Assembly: GCA_020696385.1 (NCBI GenBank)
Contig: JAEHCQ010000001.1
Coordinates: forward strand, 193,003 to 257,002
Direction: 5' to 3'
Source of the DNA: Methanobacteriota archaeon
Lineage (GTDB): Archaea; Thermoplasmatota; Thermoplasmata; SG8-5; JAGLSY01
DNA: 64,000 bases
Shown one piece after another: positions 40,577 to 57,575 of this stretch. The translations under genes were made by a program, and so were the position numbers. Every line of letters begins with the position of its first letter. Within the stretch, counting starts at the first letter, position 1. The notes beneath the pieces were generated by a model. The model saw only the letters and a program-made list of their open reading frames with translations. It made no database searches and was not told the origin of the DNA.

Positions 40577-43270
40577 TCAGCAACCTCTGCCATGCTCGTT
40601 CTTGAGGTCCAGATACGCACTCACATATCCACCGCTCTCATGCTTGATCTCGAAGCCCATTTTGGTCAATAGGTGGATAGCTGGCTTATTGTCCGTCATC
40701 ATCTCCGCATAGAGTTCGTCTATCTTCCTATCCCTGCATATCTCGATCATATAATCCGCCATCTTCGAGCCAAGGCCAAGCCCATGCCAGGGGTCGGCTA
40801 TGATGAAAGCGATCTCGCCATTCTTCTTATCGGGATCCAGTATGACTCTGATAACTCCGAGGATCTTACGCTTGCCCTCATCATTGAGCTCCGCGACTAT
40901 GGCCATCTCTCTGTCGTAGTCGATATTGCAGTATCTGACACGAACCTCATGAGGCGTGTTCTTGATGGATTGGAAGAACCTAAATCGAATAGAACTTTCA
41001 GAGAAATTGTTGAACATCTCCAACCACATTGGCTCATCCTCAGGTTTTATCGGCCTGAGAATGACATCTCGCCCATCCTTCATCTTCCATGGGATCTCGT
41101 ATTTCTTCGGATAGGGGTTGATGACCAGGTGCTCGTATTGTTCCTTAGGCTGGAAGACCTTGTCCTTGTCTATGACCACCCTGGCATCCAGGGCGAAAGC
41201 TCCGTTCTCATCGATGAGCAATGGATTGATGTCCACCTCTTTGATCTCCGGGAAATCAATGAGCATATTGGAGAACCTGACCATGATGGATTGAAGTAGC
41301 TTTATATCGGCTGGTGGACGGCCCCTGAAACCCTTGAGCATGGTGTATATCTTGGTCTCTTCCATCATGCGTTTGGCCAATGTCTGATTGAGTGGTGGTA
41401 GCCCTATTGATATATCCTTGTATATCTCCACGCCAGTCCCCCCGGTTCCGAAGGCAATGACCGGCCCAAACAATGGGTCTGATTTTGAGCCTATTATGAC
41501 CTCATAACCACCTTTGACCATTGGTTGGATGGTGACACCACGTATCTCCGCATCGGGATCATATTCCTTGGCATTGTTGATTATAGTATCAAAGGCTTGT
41601 TTGACCTCCTCGTCAGATCCAATATTGAGCATGATGCCTTTGGCATCCGTTTTGTGAACTATCTGAGGCGAGTGTATCTTCATGGCAACTGGATAACCTA
41701 TCTGGAAAGCCTTTTGAACGGCTTGAGATTGAGTTTTGGCTATCTCGGTCCTGACAACTGGTATCTCATAATAATCCAGCAAACGCTTTGCCTCTGATTC
41801 CGTGAGTATCTCCCGCCCCTCTTTGGCCGCATTTCTCATTATGACCATCAAAGGCCTTTTGGGAGGTGCACCATCCATCGTCATCTCATCTGGAGTTTCA
41901 TAAAGTAACTCCAGATTTCGCTTGTACTGGTACATGTACATATAGGCATCAATGGCCTGTTCAGGCGTGGCATAGGTCGGTATATTGTTCTTGGAGAAAA
42001 CCTGATTCGCCTTCTCCACTCCCTTTCGACCGATAAATGATGTCAATATCGTCTTTGAGTTATGTTTTCCATCCTTGATCACCTTGACGATCCTTCTCGC
42101 GGAATCTGTTGGATCTGCAACACCTTGGACTGTGTTTATCAGAAGTATTCCATCTATCCCTTTATCCTTCAAACAGGCCTTGAAAACGGTCTCGTATCGA
42201 TCAGAGCCGGCATCCCCAAGTATGTCAATGGGGTTTCCATGGCTCCAGTAGGGGGGCAGTTTCTCATCCAGCTCCTTTATCGTTTCAGGACTGAGCTGTG
42301 CCAATTTACCACCCTTTTGTATGAGCGCGTCGGTGGCCATTATTCCGGGGCCACCGGCATTGGTGATTATCGCCAACCTCGGGCCTTTTGGCAGTGGCTG
42401 GGTTCCCAGAATGGCCGAGCAATTGAAAAGGTCGCTGATATCATTCACCCTGATCATTCCCGCTCTCTTGAAGGCCGCATCGTATATCGCATCCTCACCG
42501 GTCATGGATCCCGTGTGGGAAGCTGCTGCTTGAGCACTCTCATAGAACTTTCCAGCCTTGACCACGATGATGGGCTTGGTTCTGGCAAAGTGACGAGCCG
42601 CGCTGATGAACTTCTTCGCATCTTTTATTCCTTCGATATAAAGAAGGATGCTTCGAGTATCTGGGTCAGATCCAAAATGATCGATCAGCTCTCCAAAATC
42701 CACATCGATCATGGAGCCAATTGACACGAAGGCACTGAGGCCGATATTCTCATGTATGGCCCAATCCAATGTTGCAGTTCCAAGAGCTCCGCTCTGAGAT
42801 ATGAAAGCTATCTTTCCAGGTTTGGGCATCTTGCCTGCAAAGGTGGCATTCAATTTGACATCCGGTCTTATGACGCCCAGACAATTAGGTCCGATTATTT
42901 TGAGGTTGTACTGGTTCTTTATCTCCATTATTTCCTGTTCCAATGCCCTGCCCTTGGCTCCTATTTCCTTGAAGCCAGCAGATATGATGATGATGCCCTC
43001 GATACCGGCCTCGCCACATTCTTTCACAATGCCAGGAACGGTCTTCGCGGGTGTGGAAATTATGGCCAGGTCCACAACTTCAGGTATATCCTTGACGGAC
43101 TTGTAGGCCTTGACCTCGAGGATCTTCTTCTTCCTTATGTTCACAGGGAAGACCTTGCCTTCAAAACCTGAGTTGGTCAAGTTCTGCATCAGTCTGCTTC
43201 CTACTGTCCCTTCCTCATCACTAGCGCCTATCAGGGCTATGTTCTGTGGTTTGAATATCTTGTCCAGCAT
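40577..43270 (-). CDS. Pat-like protein: NDP-forming acyl-CoA synthetase (alpha+beta) domains fused to a C-terminal GNAT acetyltransferase domain
   Basis: 897 aa. N-terminal CoA-binding/succinyl-CoA-synthetase-like region (IALIGASDEEGTVGS...), an ATP-grasp region, and a C-terminal about 160-aa GNAT fold (...IAFIIADPWHGLGLGSKMADYMIE...). This matches the bacterial Pat/YfiQ architecture. Confidence 0.8.
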   Translation of the reverse strand: MLDKIFKPQNIALIGASDEEGTVGSRLMQNLTNSGFEGKVFPVNIRKKKILEVKAYKSVKDIPEVVDLAIISTPAKTVPGIVKECGEAGIEGIIIISAGFKEIGAKGRALEQEIMEIKNQYNLKIIGPNCLGVIRPDVKLNATFAGKMPKPGKIAFISQSGALGTATLDWAIHENIGLSAFVSIGSMIDVDFGELIDHFGSDPDTRSILLYIEGIKDAKKFISAARHFARTKPIIVVKAGKFYESAQAAASHTGSMTGEDAIYDAAFKRAGMIRVNDISDLFNCSAILGTQPLPKGPRLAIITNAGGPGIMATDALIQKGGKLAQLSPETIKELDEKLPPYWSHGNPIDILGDAGSDRYETVFKACLKDKGIDGILLINTVQGVADPTDSARRIVKVIKDGKHNSKTILTSFIGRKGVEKANQVFSKNNIPTYATPEQAIDAYMYMYQYKRNLELLYETPDEMTMDGAPPKRPLMVIMRNAAKEGREILTESEAKRLLDYYEIPVVRTEIAKTQSQAVQKAFQIGYPVAMKIHSPQIVHKTDAKGIMLNIGSDEEVKQAFDTIINNAKEYDPDAEIRGVTIQPMVKGGYEVIIGSKSDPLFGPVIAFGTGGTGVEIYKDISIGLPPLNQTLAKRMMEETKIYTMLKGFRGRPPADIKLLQSIMVRFSNMLIDFPEIKEVDINPLLIDENGAFALDARVVIDKDKVFQPKEQYEHLVINPYPKKYEIPWKMKDGRDVILRPIKPEDEPMWLEMFNNFSESSIRFRFFQSIKNTPHEVRVRYCNIDYDREMAIVAELNDEGKRKILGVIRVILDPDKKNGEIAFIIADPWHGLGLGSKMADYMIEICRDRKIDELYAEMMTDNKPAIHLLTKMGFEIKHESGGYVSAYLDLKNEHGRGC

Positions 43271-43560
43271 TTTATCACCTCTCCATCTTCAGAGTCAACC
43301 ATTTATGGGCTACATCTGTAGTTTGGGGACTAAGAATCAATAATGAAAGTCACTTTCATTATCGTCTTCTATAGGTGAATATATCCGATCCATTTATAAT
43401 AGCCTATGTTATTATTTCTGTAACAAATAGATAAATAATATTGCCATTATTTACAATATGTAACATAATATAATCACATATATACAAATAGTCCGTCAAA
43501 CATATAATTATGTGGAGAAGATAAAATGAATTCAAATATGATAGAAGAGGTGGATGCATT

Positions 43561-44313
43561 ATGGTATTGGATACTCGAACAAAACAAGAAAGATATCCCT
43601 CAGCTATGCCTTCCTCGAAACCTGACAGGATAATGACACAATCGCAGATACCGATCAAAGATATTGATCCTTCGATACCATCAAAAAAATGTAGCACAGG
43701 TCAAAAAGATAGTGTCAATATAGTTATATCTAATCACAATATACTCAATAATACGGATGATAATATGACAAATAGTAGCGAAATACCCCAAAAAAAGTCA
43801 AATAGTAACAAATCAGAGTATGGTGATAAGATCCTTCAAAGCCTGATGGATGACCCCACAAGAAGTGATAGCGAGATCGCCCAGGATCTGAACACCTACA
43901 GGCAGAAGGTCTGGCGACGCAGAAAGGAACTGGAAGAAGAAAATGACATCTGGGGATACACCGCGGTGGTGGACGAGAGCAAACTGAATCACGTATCCTA
44001 TATCGTTCTCATGAAGACAAGGACAATGAACAAGGAGCTTGTGGACATACTGATCAAGCGCATAACTCTGGAGGAACCAAGGAAGCAAGGAGTCCGTCTC
44101 AAGAACATGTTCTATGTGAATGGCGAGTTCGACTGGGTCATACGTTTCACGGCTCCAGATCATGCAACTGCTAGGAAATATTTCGAGACATTAAGGCTCC
44201 AATATGCGGATCATCTACAGGAAAAACCAGTCATGATAGACATCAATTTTTCCCTAGTATTAGAGGGAAAACATAATCCAGACCTGAATGAACTACATGA
44301 TTTTGTACCTTAG
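43561..44313 (+). CDS. Lrp/AsnC family transcriptional regulator (HTH + RAM domain) with an unusual N-terminal extension; the true start may be an internal Met
   Basis: C-terminal 150 aa are Lrp-like (IAQDLNTYRQKVWRRRKELEEENDIWGYTAVVD...VIRFTAPDHATARKYFETL). The first about 90 aa are low-complexity and may not be translated. Confidence 0.65.
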   Translation: MVLDTRTKQERYPSAMPSSKPDRIMTQSQIPIKDIDPSIPSKKCSTGQKDSVNIVISNHNILNNTDDNMTNSSEIPQKKSNSNKSEYGDKILQSLMDDPTRSDSEIAQDLNTYRQKVWRRRKELEEENDIWGYTAVVDESKLNHVSYIVLMKTRTMNKELVDILIKRITLEEPRKQGVRLKNMFYVNGEFDWVIRFTAPDHATARKYFETLRLQYADHLQEKPVMIDINFSLVLEGKHNPDLNELHDFVP

Positions 44314-45143: not shown

Positions 45144-45560
45144 GCCCTATGTTGAACCGCCTATATTATTCTCACTTCGAGGATGATGCCGTGAAGACAG
45201 TAGTGAAGCTAGCTGAGTTATCGGATAATGGATGGACAGTGGCTTGACCCTTTGAATACAGTTATTATCAATAATAGAATGAAAGAGATCTTATACCTCT
45301 GGATACATACAATTAGGAGAGACTTATATAAAGAATAAGTGGGCCTGTCCGAATTTCCAAACAGCCGGCTATTTTCATGCCGGCCTCTTTTGAATCGGAG
45401 ATCTCCGCCGTGTGAAGGCGGCGTCATAACCTGGCTAGACCACAGGCCCGAGTTGGTATTACCTGGAAATGCCAATGAGTAATAAAGATTTTCTATGAGC
45501 CCACCCATTCAATAGCCAAAAGGTATTTATCATATCTATCATTCACACCACTATCTGAAT

Positions 45561-45634
45561 GGGCCCGTGGGTTAGCTTGGCTATACTTGTGGCTTTGGGA
45601 GTCACAGACTCCGGTTCAAATCCGGGCGGGCCCA
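45561..45634 (+). tRNA. tRNA-Pro (anticodon UGG)
   Basis: Manually folded. Acceptor stem GGGCCCG/CGGGCCC (7 bp). T-arm TCCGG-TTCAAAT-CCGGG. Anticodon stem GTGGC/GTCAC with loop TTTGGGA, giving U33 and anticodon TGG. D-arm with GG in the loop. Discriminator A; no encoded CCA. Confidence 0.75.
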
Positions 45635-45869
45635 CTTTTCTTTACTATATTTTATATACATTCATAGAAAAATGGCAAGACTTGAAGCGTTACATTTCTC
45701 AGTGATGGCTTCAAGTCGTAGCCATCAATCTTTTTCTAAGCCAGTGTTTTATATCCATAAAGAAAAAGATTGTTGGGTAGACTTGGGCTGCGAAGCAGAA
45801 CAAGGCTAAACCCATCTTTGTTTTTATTTAAAGGTTAAATAGGCAATCCAGCACAAATTCGTTTTGGTC

Positions 45870-46277
45870 TTAACACAAAACAATTCTAACTCGTTTTTGT
45901 GATTCATGTGCATTCTTACAGACAATGATAAGCTCATTTAAAATTGATTTGAGGTCATCAACATCTTTTTTCTGAAGCAAATATCCTTCCAAAGGCATAC
46001 TAATCATATCTTCTCCTTCATTGTTCATTGCTGACAATAATGAAGAAAAGGTTTCCATCAAGGATAATGGAGATTGCCATGCTTCAGCACCTTCGCTACC
46101 ATCAGTTGCTAAATGGAATGATTCCAAATCAAACTCGTAAACTTCTGAAAGATAATTAGTTGTTGAATCAGAATCATAGGTAAGATCAAAATATAACTTT
46201 GCAAATAATCTTGAATCTTTTGGTGGCCAGTCATCCGGTTCCATCCCTTCAACTTGTAATGTCGCATCTATTCCCAT
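45870..46277 (-). CDS. Hypothetical acidic protein (135 aa), second gene of the low-GC cassette
   Basis: ORF in AT-rich DNA overlapping the upstream gene by 10 nt. No recognised motif. Confidence 0.5.
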   Translation of the reverse strand: MGIDATLQVEGMEPDDWPPKDSRLFAKLYFDLTYDSDSTTNYLSEVYEFDLESFHLATDGSEGAEAWQSPLSLMETFSSLLSAMNNEGEDMISMPLEGYLLQKKDVDDLKSILNELIIVCKNAHESQKRVRIVLC

Positions 46278-47245
46278 ATGTTCTCCTCAATTAATCTATC
46301 AAATTCAACAGCATACTTTGGTATTCTTTCATTATTCAAATCTAAATTAATTTCATCAAATATATCGCCCAATGATAAATTATTCTTAGTGCCATCACTA
46401 ACAATTTCAAAAATATCTAGTAGAAGATTTTCTCCTAAAACTAATCCTCTTCTAAATTCAATTATCCGTTCCATTTTCTTACCTTTGGCTTCATCAAACT
46501 CTACTGTTCTTTGAAAATTTGATGGTTTCGTGATTACTCTCCAAGAAATGTTAGGATGTTTGAGCCTCAATAAGAAGCCAAAATACAATGCAAAAATATC
46601 ATTACATATTGTCAAATTTGACTTGGAATATCTAGTTGATTTCGGTATATCATTTAACTGTTTTAAAATATTTTGAAAAATGTCGATTTTTTGGCCAAAA
46701 TTTGTGCCAGGATAATGTAATCCAAGATTTTTGGAAATTGTTGATTCCATTTCCTTATATTTCAGTGTGGCTTCATTATATCGAGTACCATATTCATATT
46801 TTAGATTTTCCCATATCCTACATAATGACATTTCTAATGAGGCTAATGGGGATCTCGATGCATAGTATCTATATTTTTTTGGTAGCCTTTTACGTGTATA
46901 TATGATAACTGGCTTTCCACGTAAATCATCTGAAAAACTTAATTCCCCAAATATGAAATCAAGTCCTGCAAATTCATCATCAGTATGTAGTGGAAGATCA
47001 TACAGAATAATCGGGACTTTCACATATTCTTTATAATCTGTAACATAATGGATAATAACTCTTTCGTCAATTTTTGGCAGATGTTTAGGGCCAACTTTTG
47101 AGATTTTAATACCGTTTTCAGTGAATTGTTTTTTTATGAGTTTTAATTCACTCTTTTTAAATTCAGACCATTCTTCTCCTCTATTTGGAATTTTAATATT
47201 TGGAAAGTCAGAATTTGTTGGTGTTAATTCAATTAGCTCATCCAT
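46268..47245 (-). CDS. Hypothetical basic protein (325 aa), first gene of the low-GC cassette
   Basis: ORF with a GGAGGGAGG RBS about 12 nt upstream of the ATG. K/R-rich. No recognised motif. Confidence 0.55.
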   Translation of the reverse strand: MDELIELTPTNSDFPNIKIPNRGEEWSEFKKSELKLIKKQFTENGIKISKVGPKHLPKIDERVIIHYVTDYKEYVKVPIILYDLPLHTDDEFAGLDFIFGELSFSDDLRGKPVIIYTRKRLPKKYRYYASRSPLASLEMSLCRIWENLKYEYGTRYNEATLKYKEMESTISKNLGLHYPGTNFGQKIDIFQNILKQLNDIPKSTRYSKSNLTICNDIFALYFGFLLRLKHPNISWRVITKPSNFQRTVEFDEAKGKKMERIIEFRRGLVLGENLLLDIFEIVSDGTKNNLSLGDIFDEINLDLNNERIPKYAVEFDRLIEENIWE

Positions 47246-47378
47246 TCATTAATCCTCCCTCCTTCCTTTTAGTTGAATCTGATTACTTAAATCTTTGCAC
47301 CCCCTAACTGGTCATTATTTTCCAGTTATATTATATACTCAAACTCACATTTTCTACAAAACAGAGGGAGAATACATT

Positions 47379-48764
47379 ATGACGAATTATGAAGATCAAA
47401 ATAAGATACTGGACAAATGCCAGTCGCATATTGAGAAAGCGAATGTCGATTTCATTGACATTCGCTACGAAATAAAAAAGGAGATCGATATCGGCTTTGA
47501 AAGCGCTGATATCAAAGAGGTTGGCTCGAATACCACGGATGGATATGTTATACGGGTATTGAACAATGGCGGTTTCGGCCTATCGATAGTGACGAAGCCA
47601 GATGACATTCCCTGGGCGATAGAGAAAGCCCAGGAGGCTGCGAAGGTGATATCGACCATAGACCGATCGGAACTGGCGGATGTTCCCGTGGTTCAGGATA
47701 TCATCACATTGAAGCTTGAGCATGATCCCAGGGATGTGCCCCTTGAGGAAAAGATGGAGCTTACCAGGAAGTACAATGACATCATGCTGGCACAGCCGGA
47801 GATATCATCCACCAGTTTGGCTTACAGCGAGGTGTACCGCCAGAAATTCTACGTAAACTCAGAAGGAACAAGAGTTGCTGAGGAACTTATGACCGTGAGT
47901 ATGACCGGCCAGGCAGTCGCTTCAAGAGACGGGATATCCCAGAATATCCGAGTGGGCATTGGTGGATCCACTGGCATGAAGAACCTGTATGGGAGGGACG
48001 ATGTCTTTGTTCGCAGGGCGGAAATAGCTCGGGAACTCCTGGATGCCGAGCCAGTCAAAGGCGGGACTTACACAGTTTTATTGAATTCCAGCATGACCGG
48101 GGTATTCGCCCACGAGGCCTTCGGACATTTCAGCGAGGCCGATGGCCTGGAGAATAATAAATCACTGAGAGAGAAGATGCAGCTGGGTCTCAAATTGGGA
48201 TCGGACAAGATCACGATAGTCGCGGACTCCACAATGGAAGGAGATCTTGGTTACTATCAATATGATGATGAAGGTGTCAGGGTGAAGAAGATCACATTGC
48301 TGGATAAGGGCATACTGACTGGAAGACTTCATTCGAGGAAGACCGCGGCAGGCTTCGGGGAGAAGTATACTGGCCACTGTATTGCCGAGGATTATCGATA
48401 CTCGCCAATTATCAGAATGGGGACCATTTTCGTAGAGGCTGGTGACAAGGACTTTGATGACCTTGTCAAGGAAGTTGGGGATGGACTGTACATTTGCGAT
48501 GCGAAGGGCGGCCAGACTGTTGGCGGCAACTTCACATTTGGAGCCCAGTACGGCTACCTGATAAAGGATGGAAAGGTCGGGCCAATGGTCCGAGATATCA
48601 ACATGATGGGAAATCTCTTCACCACTCTTGAGAATATAACAGAGGTGGGAAATGACTTCCACCTTTCAGAAAGGGGTGGATGTGGCAAAGGCCAGTGGAA
48701 TATCAAATCCGCGCATGGTGGACCGCATATGATTATCAAAGAAACTGTCGTGGGGGGTGTTTGA
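47379..48764 (+). CDS. tldD: TldD family metalloprotease
   Basis: HExxxH motif (VFAHEAFGHFSEAD) and a glycine-rich C-terminal region. The start is set at ATG 47379 (GAGGGAG RBS) rather than the track's TTG 47295. Confidence 0.85.
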   Translation: MTNYEDQNKILDKCQSHIEKANVDFIDIRYEIKKEIDIGFESADIKEVGSNTTDGYVIRVLNNGGFGLSIVTKPDDIPWAIEKAQEAAKVISTIDRSELADVPVVQDIITLKLEHDPRDVPLEEKMELTRKYNDIMLAQPEISSTSLAYSEVYRQKFYVNSEGTRVAEELMTVSMTGQAVASRDGISQNIRVGIGGSTGMKNLYGRDDVFVRRAEIARELLDAEPVKGGTYTVLLNSSMTGVFAHEAFGHFSEADGLENNKSLREKMQLGLKLGSDKITIVADSTMEGDLGYYQYDDEGVRVKKITLLDKGILTGRLHSRKTAAGFGEKYTGHCIAEDYRYSPIIRMGTIFVEAGDKDFDDLVKEVGDGLYICDAKGGQTVGGNFTFGAQYGYLIKDGKVGPMVRDINMMGNLFTTLENITEVGNDFHLSERGGCGKGQWNIKSAHGGPHMIIKETVVGGV

Positions 48765-50072
48765 TTGAAAAGAGTATTGGAAATAGCGGATAAACTGGCA
48801 GATGAGGCCGAGATATTATTCCTGGAAGAAAAGGCATCCAGCCTCACTATAGAGGATTCCAAATTAAGAGATATAGAAGGAACCATAAATTCAGGTTATG
48901 CTCTCAGGCTTATCAAGGATGGAAAGATAGGCAGTGCTTTCACTCGCAATCTCATAAATAGGGAGGAACTGGTGAAGAATGCACTGAACTCCCTGATAGG
49001 CAATGTGAAGGCTGATTACAGCTTCCCAGAGCCTGCGAAGATAAAAGAGTTCACGCAGTTCAGCAAGGAAACAGAAAGCCTCACCTATACGGGCCTTCTG
49101 GACAAATGCAATGACGCGATCCATCATTTCGAGGGTAAGGTAGAGGGGCAGATCAATTGTTATTCGGGTTCTGGTATTAGAACCAGAAAAATAATGAACA
49201 CTCATGGCGTGGATCATGTGGAAGAAAGTTCCATGTTCTACAGTGTGCCAGCATTGGTATATCCAGGTACTCATACCTCTATAATGAATATATTTATGAC
49301 CGTGGCACCACAGAGTCTCACCCATACCGAACTGCAGGACCAGCTTGATCTTTACACATCCTCTTTACCAGAAGTGGAAATTGGTTCTAGCAAGATGAAG
49401 GTCATGTTCATGCCGGGAGCCTTTACCGGCCTGATATGGAGATTGAATGCAGGAACCAATGGCAAGAACTTCTATGAAAAGAGCTCGCCATTGGTCAATA
49501 AAGTCGGTGATAAGATCATATCCGACAAGATCACTGTGACCAATGATCCCTTTGACCTTGAGAGGCCAGGAGCCTGTGCCTTTGATGATGAGGGAGTGGC
49601 AGCAAGAAAGCTGGACATCATCAAGGATGGGGTGCTTGAAACATGCTTCGTGGACCTTGATTATGCGGATAAACTTAACATGGAGCCAACGGGAACAGGC
49701 TTTAGAGAGACCCTGTGGGGCGAGGATGGTGTATCCATCCCCATAATCCCAAACCCAAAGCACATGCGTATACAGCCAGGAAAAGAGACCTACAAGGGAT
49801 TGCTGGGCATGATGGATGAGGGTGTCATAGCTCTAGATATGATCGGGTATCATTCAGGCAATATCCTTAATGGGGATTTCTCAATGGGGATGAATCCCGG
49901 CCTTTATGTCAAGAATGGAGAGATCATCGGAAGGGTGAAGGATGGCATGGTGGCTGGTAATGTCTATGATATGCTGAGCAATGTGCTTGGTGTGGAGGAT
50001 AGGATACACGATAAGAATGGCAGGCCACACCCATGCGTGCTCTTCGATGATGTCGCGGTCTCGGCCAAGTAA
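48765..50072 (+). CDS. pmbA: PmbA/TldE family protein (partner of TldD)
   Basis: 435 aa with TldD/PmbA-fold character. Immediately follows tldD with 0-nt spacing. Confidence 0.8.
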   Translation: MKRVLEIADKLADEAEILFLEEKASSLTIEDSKLRDIEGTINSGYALRLIKDGKIGSAFTRNLINREELVKNALNSLIGNVKADYSFPEPAKIKEFTQFSKETESLTYTGLLDKCNDAIHHFEGKVEGQINCYSGSGIRTRKIMNTHGVDHVEESSMFYSVPALVYPGTHTSIMNIFMTVAPQSLTHTELQDQLDLYTSSLPEVEIGSSKMKVMFMPGAFTGLIWRLNAGTNGKNFYEKSSPLVNKVGDKIISDKITVTNDPFDLERPGACAFDDEGVAARKLDIIKDGVLETCFVDLDYADKLNMEPTGTGFRETLWGEDGVSIPIIPNPKHMRIQPGKETYKGLLGMMDEGVIALDMIGYHSGNILNGDFSMGMNPGLYVKNGEIIGRVKDGMVAGNVYDMLSNVLGVEDRIHDKNGRPHPCVLFDDVAVSAK

Positions 50073-50099
50073 GGAATCGAGAATTAAGGATTGTGTTAA

Positions 50100-51722
50100 A
50101 TGGGCTCCATCCCAATTGGCACAATCCTTAATAATCACCCAAGGTATCTTGCATTGATGATGAAGAAGCTGGTAATTCTGGTTCTCGGGATATTGTTCAT
50201 AATGTCCATCCTCGGAGGTGTATGGTCCATGACCACCGCCCCTCCAAGAACTGGGTTTACAGAAACAGATTACATAAAACCCGCGGCCAGCGGAGCCCTT
50301 GACATGGATTCCATACCACCATATTCCAACACCATTCATGATTCACCTGATCTCAGCATCCAATTCTCACTCGGGCATTTCTACAAAGAATATGGGAGTG
50401 TTATCGATGTCACGGCCACAAATGAAGGTCATCGGGACATATTTCTGATAGCCTTCGCCTTCGAATGGGTGGATACTGGCCAGATATTCTCTAAATATCT
50501 CAACCTCACAATCAAAAGTGGTGAGATCGAGGAACTGGGTCTGCTCAATATTGAAGGGCCTGGTATTACAGGACAAACCGAATATCGCATCCTGGTACAG
50601 GCTCTGGAAAAAAGGACCAATGTGTACTACAAATTGGAGGTGCGCGATGATGACTGGGTGCCATTTGAGTCCAGCACCATCAATGTACTTGATGAAGCAA
50701 TGGAAATGGAATATGATTATCAGATCAATTATTATCATTATTTCGACAGGACCAATGAATTGATAACACCGGACTCGCCATCCATAACCTTCCTGGCCAA
50801 TATCGCCACCACGCAACTGGGTTCAGGATACAAGGTAAGCAAGATAGCGGCGATATTCGATCATGTTGATGAGATACTCACCTATAGATTGGAACCAGAT
50901 GGTGAGGATGATTGGCAGACCCCGGAAGATTGTATCAGCACCAAAACTGGTGATTGCGAGGATTATTCTCTTCTGATTGCGGCCATGGTGAATTCCATTG
51001 GCGGAACCTCGAGGATGTACCTGATAGAAGGACATGCTTTCGCAGCAGTCTATATTGGCAATACCACCCAGGACCTTCAAACTACCGAGGAGAGCATCAG
51101 TGCTTATTACAATACAGAATTGAAAATATACTATCTGGAGGATGAAACCGGTTACTGGGTCATCGCAGATCCATTGGGCTCCTTTTACTTTGGAGGGTCC
51201 CCTGTTGGTGCGGCCCCAGTGAGTGGAGGGGATGATTGGGAATGGACCTTTGAAGAAACGGAGATCGTTCATGCCATCGATATAACAGGAATTGTGCCAG
51301 AAGATGAAATATGGTACAATATAATCTTCTGGATGTTCATGATGTTCCTCACTGGCATCATCCTTATCGCTATGACGACCTATGGTTCAAAAAAGGAGAA
51401 TGCTGTGCCGAATAATACCTGTGCATTGTGCAATTTGCATATCAATGAAAGTCCAGTGATATGTCCTAATTGCAATGCGAGATCACATATCTCATGCCTC
51501 AATGCGGGGAGATACTGTCCCAAGTGCAATACCGCGATAGTTGTGGCAGGTCCGCCAGTTCGACCACCACATACCCCACAGCCACAATATGGACAACAAC
51601 CGCAATCGCACCAACCGCTTCCACAACAGCAGCCAGCAACAACTCAGCCTGTACGAGATACACCTCCACCACCGTCTGTACAGGAACGTCCACTGCCTCC
51701 ACCACCACCTCCAGAAGAGTGA
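50100..51722 (+). CDS. Membrane-anchored transglutaminase-like (Cys-His-Asp) protein with a C-terminal TM helix, cytoplasmic Cys4 zinc ribbon and Pro/Gln-rich tail
   Basis: N-terminal TM/signal segment (MMKKLVILVLGILFIMSILGG; an alternative start is 50157). TGase core GDCEDYSLL...EGHAFAAVY. Second TM helix IWYNIIFWMFMMFLTGIILIAM. Zinc ribbon CALCNLH...CPNC...C...CPKC. Tail PQPQYGQQPQSHQPLPQQQP...PPPPPPEE. Confidence 0.6.
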   Translation: MGSIPIGTILNNHPRYLALMMKKLVILVLGILFIMSILGGVWSMTTAPPRTGFTETDYIKPAASGALDMDSIPPYSNTIHDSPDLSIQFSLGHFYKEYGSVIDVTATNEGHRDIFLIAFAFEWVDTGQIFSKYLNLTIKSGEIEELGLLNIEGPGITGQTEYRILVQALEKRTNVYYKLEVRDDDWVPFESSTINVLDEAMEMEYDYQINYYHYFDRTNELITPDSPSITFLANIATTQLGSGYKVSKIAAIFDHVDEILTYRLEPDGEDDWQTPEDCISTKTGDCEDYSLLIAAMVNSIGGTSRMYLIEGHAFAAVYIGNTTQDLQTTEESISAYYNTELKIYYLEDETGYWVIADPLGSFYFGGSPVGAAPVSGGDDWEWTFEETEIVHAIDITGIVPEDEIWYNIIFWMFMMFLTGIILIAMTTYGSKKENAVPNNTCALCNLHINESPVICPNCNARSHISCLNAGRYCPKCNTAIVVAGPPVRPPHTPQPQYGQQPQSHQPLPQQQPATTQPVRDTPPPPSVQERPLPPPPPPEE

Positions 51723-51788
51723 TGGTTTCTATTTTAGCCAAAGCTGATCCAATACAAATGAATGCATCTTATAAACTGAATGTTTGTT

Positions 51789-52088
51789 TCAAATTTCTGT
51801 ATTTCTATAACGATCTTTCAATTCCCCGGTCTTTCCCTTGTTCCATGAACCGACCTTGCTGAAGAAGCCTGTGACTCTTGTTATTTTCTCGACATTCTTC
51901 CCCTGTCGAGAATAGGCCAGTAGAGCGTTCAACTCATGCTTGTCAATGACCGAGTGTGTGTAATGGGTCTCCGCATCATAGAGCTTGTTCCTGACATAGA
52001 TCCCATCATTACCATCGTGAGCTCCCTCCGCCCACTCATATTCCTCTCCACGTCCATTCAAAAAATCCTTGAAATCTTCAACCTTCAT
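51789..52088 (-). CDS. Small protein resembling the C-terminal glycyl-radical domain of anaerobic (class III) ribonucleotide reductase NrdD
   Basis: 99 aa. The C-terminus ITRVTGFFSKVGSWNKGKTGELKDRYR matches the NrdD-type R-V-x-G-[YF]...N-x-G-K...E...R glycyl-radical signature as recalled from memory. There is no upstream zinc ribbon and no nrdD in the window. Confidence 0.45.
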   Translation of the reverse strand: MKVEDFKDFLNGRGEEYEWAEGAHDGNDGIYVRNKLYDAETHYTHSVIDKHELNALLAYSRQGKNVEKITRVTGFFSKVGSWNKGKTGELKDRYRNTEI

Positions 52089-52186
52089 ATTTGACCCATC
52101 CTAGATTTATCAGTATCATATGGTATGACAAATTGGTATAAAATCATGACCCCTATGTGTGCGAAAACATGCATTTACAATCCACA

Positions 52187-52918
52187 TTATCCATCATGAG
52201 AATTATCATTCATATTCCTGTTCTTCAAGTATCTTCGAATAAGGAAGACGATGATAGCCAGCAGCACGATCGTGCCGATTAAATAGGATACAGTGGAGCC
52301 AAAGATATCAAGCATCTGCTCCCCGATATAGAAGGAAGGGATAGCGATGGCAAAACATCCCACGGTGGAGCCACCAAAAACAGACATGAGAACATTTCTT
52401 TTTTCCATTCCGCCAAATATGCCGAATATGGTCGCCATTATCCCACCACTCCCCTGGAATGGCAATGCCACGTATGCGGCCAGACCATACCGTGCCAGTC
52501 TTTTCTTTTCTGGCCTTGATTCAAGTTTCTTCCTGCCCAATTCCTCAAATGACATGACGAATTTTCCTATCTTCGGTATCTTAGTTATCAGATCGAAGTT
52601 CCAGATTATGAAGATCGAGCACATGACATCCACAAATATCACGGATGTGGCAATAAGAATTATAGCAAAGGTAGCGGTCGGCGGATCGGCCAGTTCCAGA
52701 AGGCCGAGCATCGCTATTGGTATCAGCACTTCCTTTCCAAATGGAGAGATGAAGTATGATAATATCAGTGCTCCGATGACAGGCCAGAGATTCGGATCAA
52801 GCAGACCGAAGAGCATGATCAGATACAGGGCGCTTATCAGGATGGGCAGCATGAAATTAAGAACTGCCTTCAAAATAGCGTTCATCCCTGAGACATTCTC
52901 ATTATCTTCCATGTTCAT
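52187..52918 (-). CDS. Integral membrane protein, possibly small multidrug-export-like (COG2426-like)
   Basis: 243 aa with about 6 TM helices. The family assignment is tentative. Confidence 0.5.
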   Translation of the reverse strand: MNMEDNENVSGMNAILKAVLNFMLPILISALYLIMLFGLLDPNLWPVIGALILSYFISPFGKEVLIPIAMLGLLELADPPTATFAIILIATSVIFVDVMCSIFIIWNFDLITKIPKIGKFVMSFEELGRKKLESRPEKKRLARYGLAAYVALPFQGSGGIMATIFGIFGGMEKRNVLMSVFGGSTVGCFAIAIPSFYIGEQMLDIFGSTVSYLIGTIVLLAIIVFLIRRYLKNRNMNDNSHDG

Positions 52919-52922
52919 GAAC

Positions 52923-53486
52923 TCAATCCTTTTTCAGCTCCATCATCCCGGCCAGCTTGTCAAAGGCCCGGGATCTGTGTGACATTTTGTTCTTTTCTTC
53001 CAGGGTCATCTCGGCAAACACCCTGGCATGTCCTTCGGGCATGAATATGGGATCGAAGCCAAAGCCAGTTGTGCCTCTTTCCTCCTTCGAAATGGAGCCA
53101 TCCACGCGACCCCTGGCGATATGTACATTCCCACTCTCATCGATATAACCCGCACAGCACTTGAAATGCGCCTGCCTTTCAGTATCGGAATGCATGAGAT
53201 CCAGTATTCCCTGGCATCCCAGAGTGTGCAGGACATAGGCGGAATAAACACCTGGAAAGCCCTCTCGATCATCCAGGAATAAGCCAGAATCATCGATCAT
53301 CAAAGGGCGGGAATATTCCTTCCAAAGGAACTTGAGACCATCCTCCACCACCTCATCCAGGGTGTCGGCCTGGATCTCCGGATATGGAGCGATCAATTGT
53401 TCGACCTCGATACCAAGATGTGAAAATCTTTCCTGCACCTCGATCAATTTTCCCTTATTGCTTGTGGCGAACCATATCTTTCTCAT
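52923..53486 (-). CDS. Non-canonical purine NTP pyrophosphatase (dITP/XTP pyrophosphatase, Ham1/RdgB family)
   Basis: FATSNKGK and GFGFDPIF motifs and an ...SHRSRA C-terminal signature. 187 aa. Confidence 0.85.
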   Translation of the reverse strand: MRKIWFATSNKGKLIEVQERFSHLGIEVEQLIAPYPEIQADTLDEVVEDGLKFLWKEYSRPLMIDDSGLFLDDREGFPGVYSAYVLHTLGCQGILDLMHSDTERQAHFKCCAGYIDESGNVHIARGRVDGSISKEERGTTGFGFDPIFMPEGHARVFAEMTLEEKNKMSHRSRAFDKLAGMMELKKD

Positions 53487-54097
53487 GAATATCTTCCTCT
53501 TTTCTCTATATTTTTGACAATGGCCAGTATTTTTTGGCCATCCTCATAAACTCCCAGATAGCCCTTGGATATACTATCAAAAAGTTCTGGAAATTCAGAG
53601 TGTGCGCTGTCAATCGCTTCCTTTAACAAATGTAGATCCACACCTTTCTTCTCAGGCTCGCAGCTTTTTTCCCCCAGACCGAAATCTATGAAATACGCGG
53701 TCCCGTCCCTGAAGATGATATTGGAAGTGGTGAGGTCACCATGGATGATATCGTTCTTGTGTAGCAAGCCCACTGACCGTCCTATTGTCTCGGCCAGTTC
53801 ATAGCGATCATCCAGATCCTGAAGAAGTATCTTGGCCAGATCGCCATCGATGTATTCCATTACCATTATGAAATTAGAAACATCGATGTCATAGACGATG
53901 GGAGTCGCGATCCCATACTGCTTGGCCTCGGACAAAAGAGAGGCCTCTTTCTTGGTTCGGGATGTTCTCAACATCATGTCCAATGACTCCACCCTGTAGC
54001 TCTTGGGTGACCTTTTTTTGAACACGACATCTCGGCCATGCCATTCGCCTCTCGTGATAGTGGCCTCGGCTCCTCGTTTTATCATGGTATTGCCCAT
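53483..54097 (-). CDS. bud32: KEOPS complex kinase Bud32 (Kae1-associated kinase)
   Basis: About 200-aa atypical small kinase (IKRGAEATI...VVFKKR...YR...EASLLSEA...IVMEYIDG...HGDLTTSN...DFGL). 4-nt overlap with the Ham1 gene. Confidence 0.75.
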   Translation of the reverse strand: MGNTMIKRGAEATITRGEWHGRDVVFKKRSPKSYRVESLDMMLRTSRTKKEASLLSEAKQYGIATPIVYDIDVSNFIMVMEYIDGDLAKILLQDLDDRYELAETIGRSVGLLHKNDIIHGDLTTSNIIFRDGTAYFIDFGLGEKSCEPEKKGVDLHLLKEAIDSAHSEFPELFDSISKGYLGVYEDGQKILAIVKNIEKRGRYS

Positions 54098-54232
54098 ATG
54101 ATGGTGAATCCCTCAGGTGTTATAAATATTGTTTCCGCTCAACGCTAATTGAATACAAATATGATACAGGCTATAGAACGGGCAAAGATGGCCAGTAAGT
54201 GCATGATCGGCTATCCGATACTTCAGATCGGC

Positions 54233-54739
54233 TCATTCAATAGGAGGAATTGATAGGAGTTCCTGCAAATTATCCATGACAGCCAGGCCTTTTATGACAT
54301 CCTTTCTCGTGATGATACCGACCAGTTTTTTATCCCTCAATACAGGGATTCGATTGACGGACTTCTTGTTCATGATATCAATGACATGACTTATGCTATC
54401 ATCTTCCTGGATGGTGTGTGGCTTTGGGTTCATCAGATCAGATACGCGTGATTTGGCGATATCGATGAAGGCTTCTTTGGCCTCCTTATCATCAAATTTT
54501 TCGATAAAGGAAACACTGACCATCGATAGAGATGGATATACCATTTCCAGTCTCTTGTACCTGACCTTCATTGCATTGAGTATGTCCTTCTCGCTCAGAA
54601 TTCCCACTAATTTGCCTTCACCATCAACGACAGGCGCGCCAGATATTCCTCTACTGGCGAGCTTCTCCACGGCCATGCTGATAGTATCCTCACCATGGAG
54701 AAAGATCACATCATCCGTCATTATCTTACTAACTTTCAT
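54233..54739 (-). CDS. CBS-domain pair protein
   Basis: Two CBS motifs (VSKIMTDDVIFL..., VSDLMNPKPHTI...). 168 aa. Immediately downstream of paaK. Confidence 0.7.
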   Translation of the reverse strand: MKVSKIMTDDVIFLHGEDTISMAVEKLASRGISGAPVVDGEGKLVGILSEKDILNAMKVRYKRLEMVYPSLSMVSVSFIEKFDDKEAKEAFIDIAKSRVSDLMNPKPHTIQEDDSISHVIDIMNKKSVNRIPVLRDKKLVGIITRKDVIKGLAVMDNLQELLSIPPIE

Positions 54740-56035
54740 TCAAGCCTTCCTCTTATCATGGACCCTTTTGGCCTTTCCTTCGCTTCTTGGCAGGGTGCCT
54801 GGATCCATAAGCTCGATCCTCGCTCTGACTGTCAGAACAGCCTGTAGCTCGCCCTCCAGCTTCTTCGCGAAGCCAGCAGGGTCATAGTCTGGTGAATTGA
54901 ATAGTTCGGGTGTTACTTCGACCTGAACATGCATACTATCAAGAATGTCCCTGTCGATGATTATCAGGTACTGGTCACCCACGCCTTTGATGTTCATGAG
55001 AACATGCTCAACCTGGCTTGGGAAGACATTCACGCCTCCGATTATGAGCATGTCATCGCTTCTGCCCTTGATCCTCATTATCCTTGGATGGGATCTGCCG
55101 CATGCGCATGGTTCATAATTGATAACAGCCAGATCCTTTGTCCTGTATCTCAACAATGGCATTGCTTCTCGTGTGAGCATGGTGAATACAAGCTCACCTT
55201 TTTCTCCTTCTGGTAGAACTTCTCCAGTGTCAGTGTCAATGGTCTCTACAAGGAACTCGTCACTCCAGATATGAAGGCCATTCTGTTCCTTGCACTCGAC
55301 AGCCACGCCAGGGCCATAGAGCTCGCTCATTCCAAAGCAATCATAGGCCTTTATTCCAAGGGATTCCTCGATCCTCTTCCTGGCCTCTTCGGACCATGGT
55401 TCGGCTCCGAACATTCCCACTTTGATATTGAAATCCTCTTTCGCATTGTAGCCTTCCTTCTCGGCGGCTTCGGCCAGATAAAGGGCATAAGAGGGTGTGC
55501 AGGCGATGACCGTGGACTGCATGTCCTTGAGCATCATCAACTGCTTCTTGGTATTGCCAGTACTTATCGGGATCACTGTCGCGCCCAGCTTTTCGGCCCC
55601 ATAATGGAACCCAAGGCCGCCTGTGAACAGTCCATAGCCGTAGCAATTCTGGACTATATCGCCCTCGCCAACTCCTGCAGAAGCATAGCATCTGGCCATG
55701 AGAGTGGTCCATGTATCCATGTCCTGCTCAGTGTATGTGACGACAGTCGGCTTGCCCGTTGTCCCGGAGGAAGCGTGCAGCCTGACGATCTGATCCAGGG
55801 GAACTGCTCTGATACCGTACGGGTAATGCTGCCTAAGATCATCTTTGACAGTGAAGGGCACTTTGTGGGCATCCTCCAGACCTTTGATATCGCCTGGAGT
55901 AATTCCAGCATCATCAAATTTCTTCTTGTACATTGGCACATTGTCATAGGCATATTTCACCATCTTGACAAAACGTTCTGATTGCAGTTTCCTTATCTCT
56001 GGAAGTTTCATATTCTCTATATCTGGCTGATACAT
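54740..56035 (-). CDS. paaK: Phenylacetate--CoA ligase family protein (PaaK / coenzyme F390 synthetase-like adenylate-forming enzyme)
   Basis: 431 aa with PaaK N-terminus (LQSERFVKMVKYAYDNVPMYKKKFDDAGI), adenylation motifs (SSGTTGKPTVV, YGxTE-like) and a C-terminal PaaK-like domain. Confidence 0.8.
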   Translation of the reverse strand: MYQPDIENMKLPEIRKLQSERFVKMVKYAYDNVPMYKKKFDDAGITPGDIKGLEDAHKVPFTVKDDLRQHYPYGIRAVPLDQIVRLHASSGTTGKPTVVTYTEQDMDTWTTLMARCYASAGVGEGDIVQNCYGYGLFTGGLGFHYGAEKLGATVIPISTGNTKKQLMMLKDMQSTVIACTPSYALYLAEAAEKEGYNAKEDFNIKVGMFGAEPWSEEARKRIEESLGIKAYDCFGMSELYGPGVAVECKEQNGLHIWSDEFLVETIDTDTGEVLPEGEKGELVFTMLTREAMPLLRYRTKDLAVINYEPCACGRSHPRIMRIKGRSDDMLIIGGVNVFPSQVEHVLMNIKGVGDQYLIIIDRDILDSMHVQVEVTPELFNSPDYDPAGFAKKLEGELQAVLTVRARIELMDPGTLPRSEGKAKRVHDKRKA

Positions 56036-56348
56036 TCGATCCCTCGTGGAATGCGAAGGCGAGAATATCTATATACTTTACGGTGGAAGCTATCAGAACA
56101 AAATAATATGAATCGCCATCATATTGTTCTGAAAGCTTCCATCCAAGGCCATAAGCCCGATTTCGCAGAGGTCTAAAATCTCTGCGTTTATTCAAATATA
56201 CATTGATGGGCTTACGGCAACCGTCTACTCTTATTGGCAATGCAAGGCACCGGATTTTATATTATGGAGGGTACCGACGATAAATATTAGTGGCGGGGTC
56301 CACCCCCATAAACACCTTAATATTCCATGAAGCCTTATCCAAACTCAC

Positions 56349-57575
56349 ATGAATATCAAAATTCTCGGAGGAGCCAGCGAGGTCGGGAGCTATGCCGTCC
56401 TTATTGAGGATGACGACATCAAATTACTCGTTGACAATGGATTGACACCCTCAAAACCTCCAAAATATCCAAAGAAGCCACCAGCGGTGGATCTCGCATT
56501 CCTAAGCCATGCCCATATAGATCACTCGGGCATGATACCATGGCTCTCCATGGAATATGGTAATGATGTTATTGCCACGGAGCCAACAATAACAGTTGGG
56601 TCCATGCTCCTGGAAGATACGGTCAAAGTATCCTCCTCGGAGGGATATCCAGTACCCTATGAGAAGAGGGATGTCAAGGCCATGAAAAGGCATTTCCAGG
56701 TTGCCACCTATGGTGATGTCATTGACGTCGGAGGATTGGAGGTCGAACTTCATTCGGCAGGACATATTCCTGGATCGACCATGTTCGCCATACAGGGTTC
56801 AAAGAAAGTGATGGTGACTGCCGATATCAATACAGTGGATACACATCTCGTAAAAAAGGCTGAGCCAGAGAAGTGTGATGTCCTGGTCATGGAAAGCACC
56901 TATGCGGGGAGAAATCACCCGCCCAGGGACGAGACCGAGAAGCAGTTCATTGAAAAGATCGGTGAGGTCATTGACAGAGGAGGATTGGCAATAGTTCCTT
57001 CATTTGCAGTTGGACGTTCACAGGAAATACTCATGATCCTCATGGATGCTGGGTTCGAGGTATGGCTGGATGGAATGGGAAGGGCAGTTGCTCGAGAATT
57101 CCTACCATTGAAGAAGTATCTGGGATCTGCAAGTGACCTTAGAAGGGCGATGGATCAGACCAATATGGTCAGGCACAGGGATCAGAGAAAAGAGGCACTG
57201 AAAGGACAAGTCATCGTGACTACCAGCGGTATGCTGGATGGAGGACCTGTGCATGAATATCTGAAGGCCCTGAAGAATGATGAGAACAGTGCGGTCCTGC
57301 TTACTGGTTTCCAGGTAGAGGAGACAAATGGCCGTTCACTTTTGGAGAATGGTACCATCAAACTCTATGGTGTTGAAACGACCATAGATTGTGAGGTTGG
57401 ATTCTTTGACTTTTCAGCCCATGCGGATCATGATGAGCTGGTCAAGTTCGCCAAGGCCTGTGATCCCGAGAAAGTCATACTCACCCATGGGGATGACAGA
57501 GAGAAGCTTCTGGAAGACCTGAAGGACTTCGATGTCATACTCCCAATAGAGGGCGATGATATACCTTTGGATTAA
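56349..57575 (+). CDS. Metallo-beta-lactamase fold beta-CASP ribonuclease (short archaeal aCPSF2-like form)
   Basis: MBL motif HAHIDHSG, downstream D/H motifs and a beta-CASP domain. 408 aa. Confidence 0.7.
   Translation: MNIKILGGASEVGSYAVLIEDDDIKLLVDNGLTPSKPPKYPKKPPAVDLAFLSHAHIDHSGMIPWLSMEYGNDVIATEPTITVGSMLLEDTVKVSSSEGYPVPYEKRDVKAMKRHFQVATYGDVIDVGGLEVELHSAGHIPGSTMFAIQGSKKVMVTADINTVDTHLVKKAEPEKCDVLVMESTYAGRNHPPRDETEKQFIEKIGEVIDRGGLAIVPSFAVGRSQEILMILMDAGFEVWLDGMGRAVAREFLPLKKYLGSASDLRRAMDQTNMVRHRDQRKEALKGQVIVTTSGMLDGGPVHEYLKALKNDENSAVLLTGFQVEETNGRSLLENGTIKLYGVETTIDCEVGFFDFSAHADHDELVKFAKACDPEKVILTHGDDREKLLEDLKDFDVILPIEGDDIPLD

Follow-up and report, generated by a model that had tools for sequence, protein, structure and literature searches.

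A probably foreign two-gene operon of undescribed protein families beside a tRNA-Pro gene in an uncultured Methanomassiliicoccales-like archaeon

Here, we describe a compact, AT-rich cassette of two genes in a 64-kb stretch of DNA from an uncultured Methanomassiliicoccales-like archaeon (contig JAEHCQ010000001.1; the whole stretch of 64,000 nt is referred to as the window). The cassette lies between the gene for tRNA-Pro(UGG), which is the only tRNA gene of the window according to ARAGORN and Rfam (anticodon TGG in the DNA), and the promoter of tldD. It carries two genes, A and B, on the minus strand (Table 1). A first inspection of the locus, made from the nucleotide letters and their open reading frames (ORFs) alone and called the sequence-only reading below, had proposed two overlapping minus-strand genes with a strong ribosome-binding site. 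Both genes are present and share 10 nt (ATGGGAATAG), and Shine-Dalgarno (SD)-like runs precede both starts: AGGAGGGAGGA at 47253-47263, ending 7 nt before the ATG of gene A, and GAGGAG 6 nt ahead of the ATG of gene B. The overlap combined with the GAGGAG upstream of the B start points to translational coupling of the two genes. A putative promoter composed of a B recognition element (BRE)- and TATA-like sequence (GCAAAGA-TTTAAGTA) is located about 43 nt upstream of the A start, with the TATA box read at 47284-47291. No paralogues of A or B were found within the 64-kb window. Read-through of the TAG stop of gene A as pyrrolysine was considered and rejected, because TAG terminates 7 of the 46 long ORFs of the window. 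The sole candidate for an operator-like symmetry was an inverted repeat of 19 nt (46291-46309 and 47272-47290; imperfect, with 79% complementarity), which connects the promoter region of A with the A/B junction; it is one among 77 inverted-repeat pairs and probably due to chance.

Table 1 Features of the cassette and its borders (positions within the window)
Feature	Start	End	Strand	Remarks
tRNA-Pro(UGG)	45561	45635	+	left landmark of the cassette; ARAGORN; Rfam tRNA, 50.6 bits
T-arm/3' acceptor segment common to tRNA-Pro UGG and GGG	45608	45635	+	28 nt; crossover point between the window and L001; from alignment
AT-rich structured spacer	45636	45869	.	234 nt; GC 0.346
Gene B	45870	46277	-	ORF, 135 aa; acidic (pI 4.2), mostly helical; new family
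A/B overlap	46268	46277	-	10 nt; read from sequence
Gene A	46268	47245	-	ORF, 325 aa; new family
Own 5' region of the cassette (SD, BRE/TATA-like)	47246	47303	-	right edge of the foreign segment
Native tldD promoter/5' region (CTAACTGGTCA...TTTCCAGTTATATTATATACTCAAACT...)	47304	47378	+	first block common with L006; outside the cassette

The base composition sets the cassette apart from its surroundings. GC in 300-nt windows is 0.29-0.35 from about 45750 to about 47400 as compared to 0.46 for the mean of the whole window, and the 12 lowest-GC windows of 1.4 kb in the 64 kb (0.312-0.326) all start within 45651-46201, over the cassette. A drop from about 50% to about 25-30% GC had been noted beside tRNA-Pro in the sequence-only reading; the trough is confirmed, but its values had to be corrected to about 30-35% against a mean of 0.46. 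Gene A (GC 0.299; GC at third codon positions, GC3, 0.212) and gene B (GC 0.346, GC3 0.250) are also far under the reference set of 40 long ORFs of the window (GC 0.468 +/- 0.042, GC3 0.519 +/- 0.069), with gene A about 4.4 standard deviations below the mean GC3. The neighbouring genes, i.e., tRNA-Pro, tldD, pmbA, a transglutaminase-like gene, and genes for a DUF3147 membrane protein, an Lrp-like regulator, and an ACS-GNAT protein, are of housekeeping type.

An exhaustive HMMER scan of 1.84 billion protein representatives with protein A yielded five matches including A itself, the four relatives being P0005 (324 aa; the full-length homologue nearest to A, on an NCBI contig of 120,817 bp), P0006 (305 aa), P0007 (693 aa), and the fragment P0008. 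Degenerate-pattern scans combined with alignment added no further members from JGI metagenome contigs or IMG/VR. Homologues of protein B are encoded on two short ENA metagenome contigs, L002 and L003 (P0003, 66% identity; P0004, 50%), on both of which the ORF fragment upstream of the B homologue is the C-terminus of an A homologue, and on the JGI contig L005 (38%), where P0006 is directly followed by a 134-aa B homologue; the near-identical contig L095 has the same arrangement. Separate A and B genes thus occur in the window, in L002, in L003, and in L005/L095. Their junction is a 10-nt overlap in L002, a 4-nt gap in L003, and a direct abutment in L005/L095, so that four lineages, the window among them, keep the order of A before B with stop and start codons that overlap or abut. 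In comparison with L002, dN/dS (Nei-Gojobori) was 0.13 for B and 0.38 for the C-terminus of A, and pN was well under pS in all comparisons, which for A were those with L002, L003, and L005. Recurrence of the pair in three further lineages, together with the low dN/dS of B (about 0.13), shows that both genes are real, and both are under purifying selection. The hosts of the family have GC contents of 46%, about 53%, and about 61%, and each genomic context is different, although all contexts are archaeal. Just downstream of the B homologue of L002, a block of about 300 nt (612-915) with about 60% GC is embedded in an AT-richer contig; neither a convincing ORF nor an Rfam match was found in this block, which may be a structured RNA.

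Comparison of the locus with its relatives supports horizontal acquisition of the cassette. Relatives were sought by a tblastn-confirmed TldD scan of GTDB species representatives, which returned only two close ones: L006, the metagenome-assembled genome (MAG) 'Methanobacteriota archaeon SF.bin51' (89% amino acid identity), and L007, a Methanomassiliicoccales MAG (73%). Both possess tldD-pmbA without A or B beside it. Left of tldD, L006 encodes a winged-helix protein and a membrane protein and has neither a tRNA gene nor A or B, and L007 has a tRNA-Ala gene about 200 bp upstream of tldD and lacks the cassette. Since nucleotide similarity between L006 and the window (blastn, alignment) begins only at 47304, from where it continues through tldD-pmbA, the right edge of the cassette is placed at 47303/47304, and the TATA box of the cassette falls inside the foreign part. 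The left edge is within the 234-nt spacer that follows the tRNA gene. In other hosts the pair is not AT-rich; its GC content is about 60% in L005, a native-like value for that contig, and 43-45% in both L002 and L003. The low GC of the pair in the window therefore reflects the donor and not the family. Foreign composition, promoter-like and SD signals of its own, the position next to a tRNA gene, and an end exactly where similarity to L006 begins bear out the earlier proposal of horizontal transfer, and conservation of the cassette at this position with native-like composition, which would have spoken against that proposal, was not observed in L006 or L007. Taken together, it is very likely that A and B are a foreign, real, and co-translated gene pair of a new family.

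It could be argued that the cassette is instead native, i.e., lineage-specific, fast-evolving, and AT-rich for other reasons, or an artefact of MAG assembly or binning. The source is indeed a MAG, two assemblies disagree left of the tRNA 3' end, and gene order to the left of tldD is disrupted in all relatives examined, hence no intact empty site is available. We nevertheless regard this explanation as highly improbable. Without transfer, a GC3 of 0.21 in gene A versus 0.52 +/- 0.07 would be difficult to account for, two assemblies contain the cassette in one continuous stretch of 11.6 kb with tldD-pmbA and the tRNA end and without a mismatch, homologous pairs occur in unrelated samples, and the sister species L006 lacks the cassette. 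Beyond the two close archaeal relatives, the nearest TldD proteins are from Cloacimonadota bacteria (47-49% identity), and TldD of other archaea (Thermoplasmata, Bathyarchaeia, and others) scored only 24-28%. The adjacent tldD-pmbA (47379-50072) may itself derive from an older inter-domain transfer.

The second assembly, L001 (GCA_020714265.1), is the only further contig on which a protein identical to A is encoded. It is identical to the window from 45608 to 57245, and the two diverge at the 28-nt T-arm/3' acceptor segment of the tRNA. Left of this crossover, L001 continues into the body of tRNA-Pro(GGG) (L001 11611-11684), which is preceded by the canonical L18e-L13-S9-rpoN cluster, and the window into tRNA-Pro(UGG), which is preceded by genes for the DUF3147 membrane protein, the Lrp-like regulator, ACS-GNAT, CarS, TruD, and RpiA. 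This crossover reflects either true recombination of two tRNA-Pro genes or a wrong join made during assembly at the 28-nt repeat; in both cases the cassette follows a tRNA-Pro gene.

The 3' end of tRNA genes is the segment typically used by integrases, and ORFan genes without detectable homologues are typical of the archaeal mobilome. The cassette could thus be the leftover cargo of a degraded virus or plasmid that was once integrated at the tRNA-Pro 3' end, with A and B serving a lost element or nothing. Its place directly 3' of a tRNA gene, its strongly deviant composition, the ORFan character of A and B, and the finding that an identical right flank is joined to another tRNA-Pro isoacceptor in L001, with the crossover in the tRNA 3' end, all fit such an origin. 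However, no gene for an integrase or another recombinase was called in the 10 kb to the left and to the right or in the left flank, and no second copy of the tRNA 3' end (att site) was present in the 64 kb with up to three mismatches allowed, as the sequence-only reading had already reported for a duplicated tRNA segment. Relatives of A or B were absent from IMG/VR, INPHARED phages, and PLSDB plasmids (tblastn and pattern scans). The 27-mer of the tRNA-Pro end was likewise absent from viral contigs, and three 20-mer matches in these contigs are irrelevant because they are tRNA-Met genes. A and B are moreover intact, under purifying selection across lineages, and not next to tRNA genes in the other copies of the pair. 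We consequently rank this scenario third among the explanations and consider it improbable. The idea of integration at the tRNA stands as to position and composition, and lacks the defining marks of an att duplicate and an integrase. Compared with known tRNA-linked islets and integrative elements, the cassette shares the location directly 3' of a tRNA gene, the atypical composition, the absence in the nearest relatives, the promoter of its own, and a tRNA 3' end that acts as a recombination breakpoint between two assemblies. It differs from them in the absence of an integrase and of a distal direct repeat of the tRNA 3' end, in its size of only 1.67 kb with two genes, and in having no virus or plasmid relatives and no tRNA linkage of the other pair copies.

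The spacer between tRNA-Pro and gene B opens with the oligo-T tail of the tRNA (TTTTCTTT) and contains three successive strong hairpins (45672-45725, 45726-45772, and 45775-45813), with folding z-scores for the 234 nt of -4.8 on the plus strand and -3.8 on the minus strand. A 10-bp perfect inverted repeat, described previously between the tRNA and the cassette, is present, but about 4 nt away from where it had been placed; its arms (45679-45688 and 45708-45717) are inside the first hairpin. No further copy of the spacer was found in the window or in any fetched locus, and Rfam recognized only the tRNA in the spacer and its flanks. The spacer is likely the 3' untranslated region (UTR) or terminator region of gene B and/or the trailer of the tRNA, and its hairpins (45672-45813) may represent either a small RNA or a stack that forms a terminator/3' UTR.

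Searches of A, B, and their homologues against Pfam, NCBIfam, PHROGs, and PADLOC gave nothing credible. The best family match, of P0005 to Pfam DUF3806 (18.5 bits, E = 0.0017), was below the cut-off of 21 bits and was not found in the other four family members; literature searches retrieved no papers on DUF3806 or on the assembly accessions. The AlphaFold (AF2) models of both proteins are confident. That of A has a predicted local distance difference test score (pLDDT) of 80 and a predicted template modelling score (pTM) of 0.78. Its N-terminal domain (residues 31-117) is predicted to have the order alpha-beta-beta-beta-alpha-beta and carries invariant K50-x-G52-P53, H66, and Y116. Next come a helical domain bearing LPxxYRYY, a long beta-hairpin for which the prediction is poor, and, at the C-terminus, a conserved motif [IM]Px[YF]A. 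The model of B (pLDDT 77, pTM 0.76) is helical with pairing N- and C-terminal strands. Conserved features of B are an N-terminal MG.D, DSRLFA, W.DP, EGE..IGM..GY, and a C-terminal C..A...GK.VRI..C, and neither a HEPN motif (Rx4-6H) nor a DNA-binding domain was found in this protein. Foldseek retrieved no match better than E = 0.3 for the A model from PDB and BFVD and no PDB match for the B model (best E = 1.1). The absence of a recognizable family, as claimed before, was hence upheld for both proteins, neither of which received a housekeeping annotation. These searches show that A and B represent two undescribed families without Foldseek counterpart in PDB or BFVD.

Two distant resemblances of A were followed up. 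The profile of A matched PDB entry 2nrk (GrpB; E = 0.04), aligning helix-KVGP-11 residues-IIH of A to helix-HIGS-IID of GrpB. A GrpB alignment, which was built from plasmid records to test this nucleotidyltransferase lead, gave the same register in hhalign with a probability of 5% (E = 0.0076), and the PDB match was lost with a three-sequence profile; GrpB is therefore kept as a lead and the fold left unassigned. The likeness to GrpB and minimal nucleotidyltransferases (Pol-beta fold, MNT-HEPN) is marginal and consists of a helix-strand-G[S/P]-11 residues-strand succession in the register of H-I-G-S...K-P-I-I-D. A differs from them in having Gly-Pro for Gly-Ser and the invariant His (H66) for the metal-binding Asp, the other invariant residues of GrpB are not aligned in A, Foldseek returned no nucleotidyltransferase, and B has no HEPN Rx4-6H. 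The catalytic signature hG[GS]-x9-13-Dh[DE]h is absent from the A family, which has K-V-G-P ... I-H-[YF] instead. The sole recurring resemblances of the N-terminal domain in Foldseek were to PD-(D/E)XK proteins and were non-significant (E > 1; probability 0.16 for NucS 2vld, 0.25 for HGTV-1 nuclease, and 0.13 for VRR-NUC). The order alpha-beta-beta-beta-alpha-beta agrees with the PD-(D/E)XK fold as in NucS/EndoMS and VRR-NUC, and so does the adjacency of other members to fen1 or nreA; conserved residues of the active site D...(D/E)xK, however, were not found in the A family.

This adjacency concerns two kinds of loci. In L004 (8898-12082), the gene for the long protein P0007 follows fen1 in the same orientation at a distance of about 80 nt, without B nearby, and its product possesses a 390-aa acidic tail (pI 4.7). 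The tail was considered as a fused B or a duplicated A, and both ideas were rejected on negative hhalign comparisons. Fragment P0008 (L096 1-790), which is 46% identical to P0007, likewise follows a fen1 gene, whose product is 69% identical and has a canonical C-terminal PIP box; because P0008 retains this position after a diverged fen1, synteny of the long form with fen1 is conserved within its lineage. The A copy of L096 has a stop after 116 codons and may be a pseudogene or reflect a contig error. In L005 (3538-5923; host about 61% GC), the A homologue starts 2 nt inside a divergently oriented nreA (Nre_N/Nre_C), and the pair of native GC is followed by genes for an 89-aa membrane protein and an HTH_20/HVO_0163-type regulator.

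Such neighbourhoods suggest a different function, in which A would be a DNA replication/repair or nucleic acid processing factor with B as its subunit or regulator, and the copy in the window a transferred rare cellular function. A long A without B stands next to fen1, in the same orientation, in two lineages between which amino acid identity is down to 69% for FEN1 and 46% for A. Gene A of L005 is back-to-back with nreA, which like fen1 codes for a repair protein that is a client of PCNA. The nuclease-like topology of the N-terminal domain with its weak PD-(D/E)XK resemblances, the basic A homologues, and the native composition of the L005 pair are all in line with this interpretation. On the other hand, the fold resemblances are all non-significant, neither PD-(D/E)XK nor nucleotidyltransferase catalytic residues are conserved, and the rarity and patchiness of the family go far beyond what a core function would allow. 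The neighbours in the window, and apparently also in L003, are unrelated to DNA metabolism, and the adjacencies to fen1 and nreA are two independent events only and were noticed post hoc. A role in DNA metabolism is thus ranked second and appears unlikely, though less so than leftover cargo.

Of known two-gene systems, type II toxin-antitoxin (TA) and toxin-immunity pairs (HigBA-like order, barnase-barstar, colicin-Im) are similar in layout, which comprises small, adjacent, and coupled genes with a 10-nt overlap and an SD each, the coupling being kept in L002, L003, and L005. As in these systems, the genes are co-directional with overlapping stop and start codons, the downstream partner is small and acidic, the distribution is patchy and suggestive of horizontal gene transfer (HGT), and a single-chain variant carries an acidic extension in place of the partner. 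Unlike them, A and B show no similarity in sequence or fold to known toxin, antitoxin, or immunity families, have no DNA-binding antitoxin domain, and combine a protein A that is larger (325 aa) than typical type II toxins with a protein B that is more conserved than A. The charge contrast is only partly as described in the sequence-only reading, which had called the pair basic and acidic. With a pI of 4.19 (range over the four copies, 4.1-4.3) and a net charge of about -16, B is indeed acidic, but A of the window is neutral (pI 6.99; K+R = D+E = 49) and only its homologues are basic (pI 8.9-9.2), which weakens the argument drawn from such a pair.

We propose that an operon of two genes with its own promoter, which takes up about 45636 to 47303, was recently acquired from a low-GC donor and lodged at a synteny break between the tRNA-Pro gene and the native tldD promoter. 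The products of A and B would be synthesized in a fixed ratio and would function together as a complex, with the small and very acidic B binding and restraining the larger A. The N-terminal alpha/beta domain of A is modelled with a nuclease- or nucleotidyltransferase-like topology but lacks all of the canonical catalytic residues. Such a complex would most likely serve as a selfish or conflict-type binary module of effector and neutralizer, similar to toxin and immunity protein, and this would explain the very patchy, HGT-driven spread. We rank this mechanism first among the functional readings because of the extreme patchiness, HGT, tight coupling, a small partner that is very acidic throughout, and an acidic tail in place of B in the fused form; as a mechanism on its own it is nonetheless tentative and less likely than not. 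To the statement as a whole, i.e., acquired operon and effector-neutralizer complex, we assign a probability of roughly 0.4.

Several findings weigh against an effector-neutralizer pair. No known toxin, antitoxin, immunity, or defence family was matched by A, B, or their homologues. In particular, Pfam, NCBIfam, and PADLOC did not assign A or B to the toxin superfamilies RelE/ParE, MazF, PIN, HicA, HEPN, Fic/Doc, GNAT, Zeta, and others, and antitoxin DNA-binding domains (RHH, HTH, AbrB, Phd/YefM), which would serve autoregulation, were not found by Pfam in either protein. PADLOC 2.0 had no matches for proteins of the window and a single one of 12 bits (E = 0.02) among the homologues. A has no recognizable catalytic motif and is neutral in the window, and neither A nor B has relatives in the virus and plasmid collections searched. 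In the flanks examined, the genes around the cassette are housekeeping genes without any defence genes, and no defence island was found. B is conserved more than A (66/50/38% versus roughly 53/34/32% identity), which is unusual for an immunity protein. The native GC of the L005 pair points to long residence, and a fused A without B, whose place beside fen1 is retained in two lineages, looks more like a cellular function. The earlier designation of the cassette as a defence or toxin-antitoxin-like module is therefore not supported, though not refuted. Of the features that define toxin-antitoxin systems, known defence systems, and integrase-borne islands, it has none beyond gene arrangement, tRNA adjacency, and composition.

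Elsewhere in the window, three further regions deviate in composition. The second most AT-rich gene of the window (14758-16572 on the plus strand; GC 0.387, GC3 0.364) codes for a 604-aa protein with a DUF255/thioredoxin domain and may likewise have been acquired, at an earlier time. At 43200-43800, GC falls to 0.30-0.33 in a second, short trough, which covers the upstream region and the first approximately 80 codons of the Lrp/AsnC-like gene 43561-44313, in the product of which the first approximately 90 residues before the winged-helix domain are rich in Ser, Asn, Pro, and Lys and resemble an extension. An AT-rich intergenic region contains a GC-rich island of some 113 nt (45340-45452, plus strand) that precedes the tRNA by about 100 nt; an 8-bp closing stem (GGGCCUGU/ACAGGCCC) encloses three hairpins (z = -2.2). 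Neither Rfam nor ARAGORN matched this island, which may encode a small RNA that has escaped annotation.

As a type of locus, a small ORFan operon of foreign origin next to a tRNA gene is ordinary, but the protein families themselves are new. Conceivably, A and B constitute an undescribed archaeal two-protein system that spreads by rare HGT, exists in split and fused forms, and has folds without solved or viral counterpart. This system would be either an effector-neutralizer pair, similar to toxin-immunity or abortive infection modules, or a nucleic acid enzyme of the PCNA neighbourhood with an acidic regulatory subunit.

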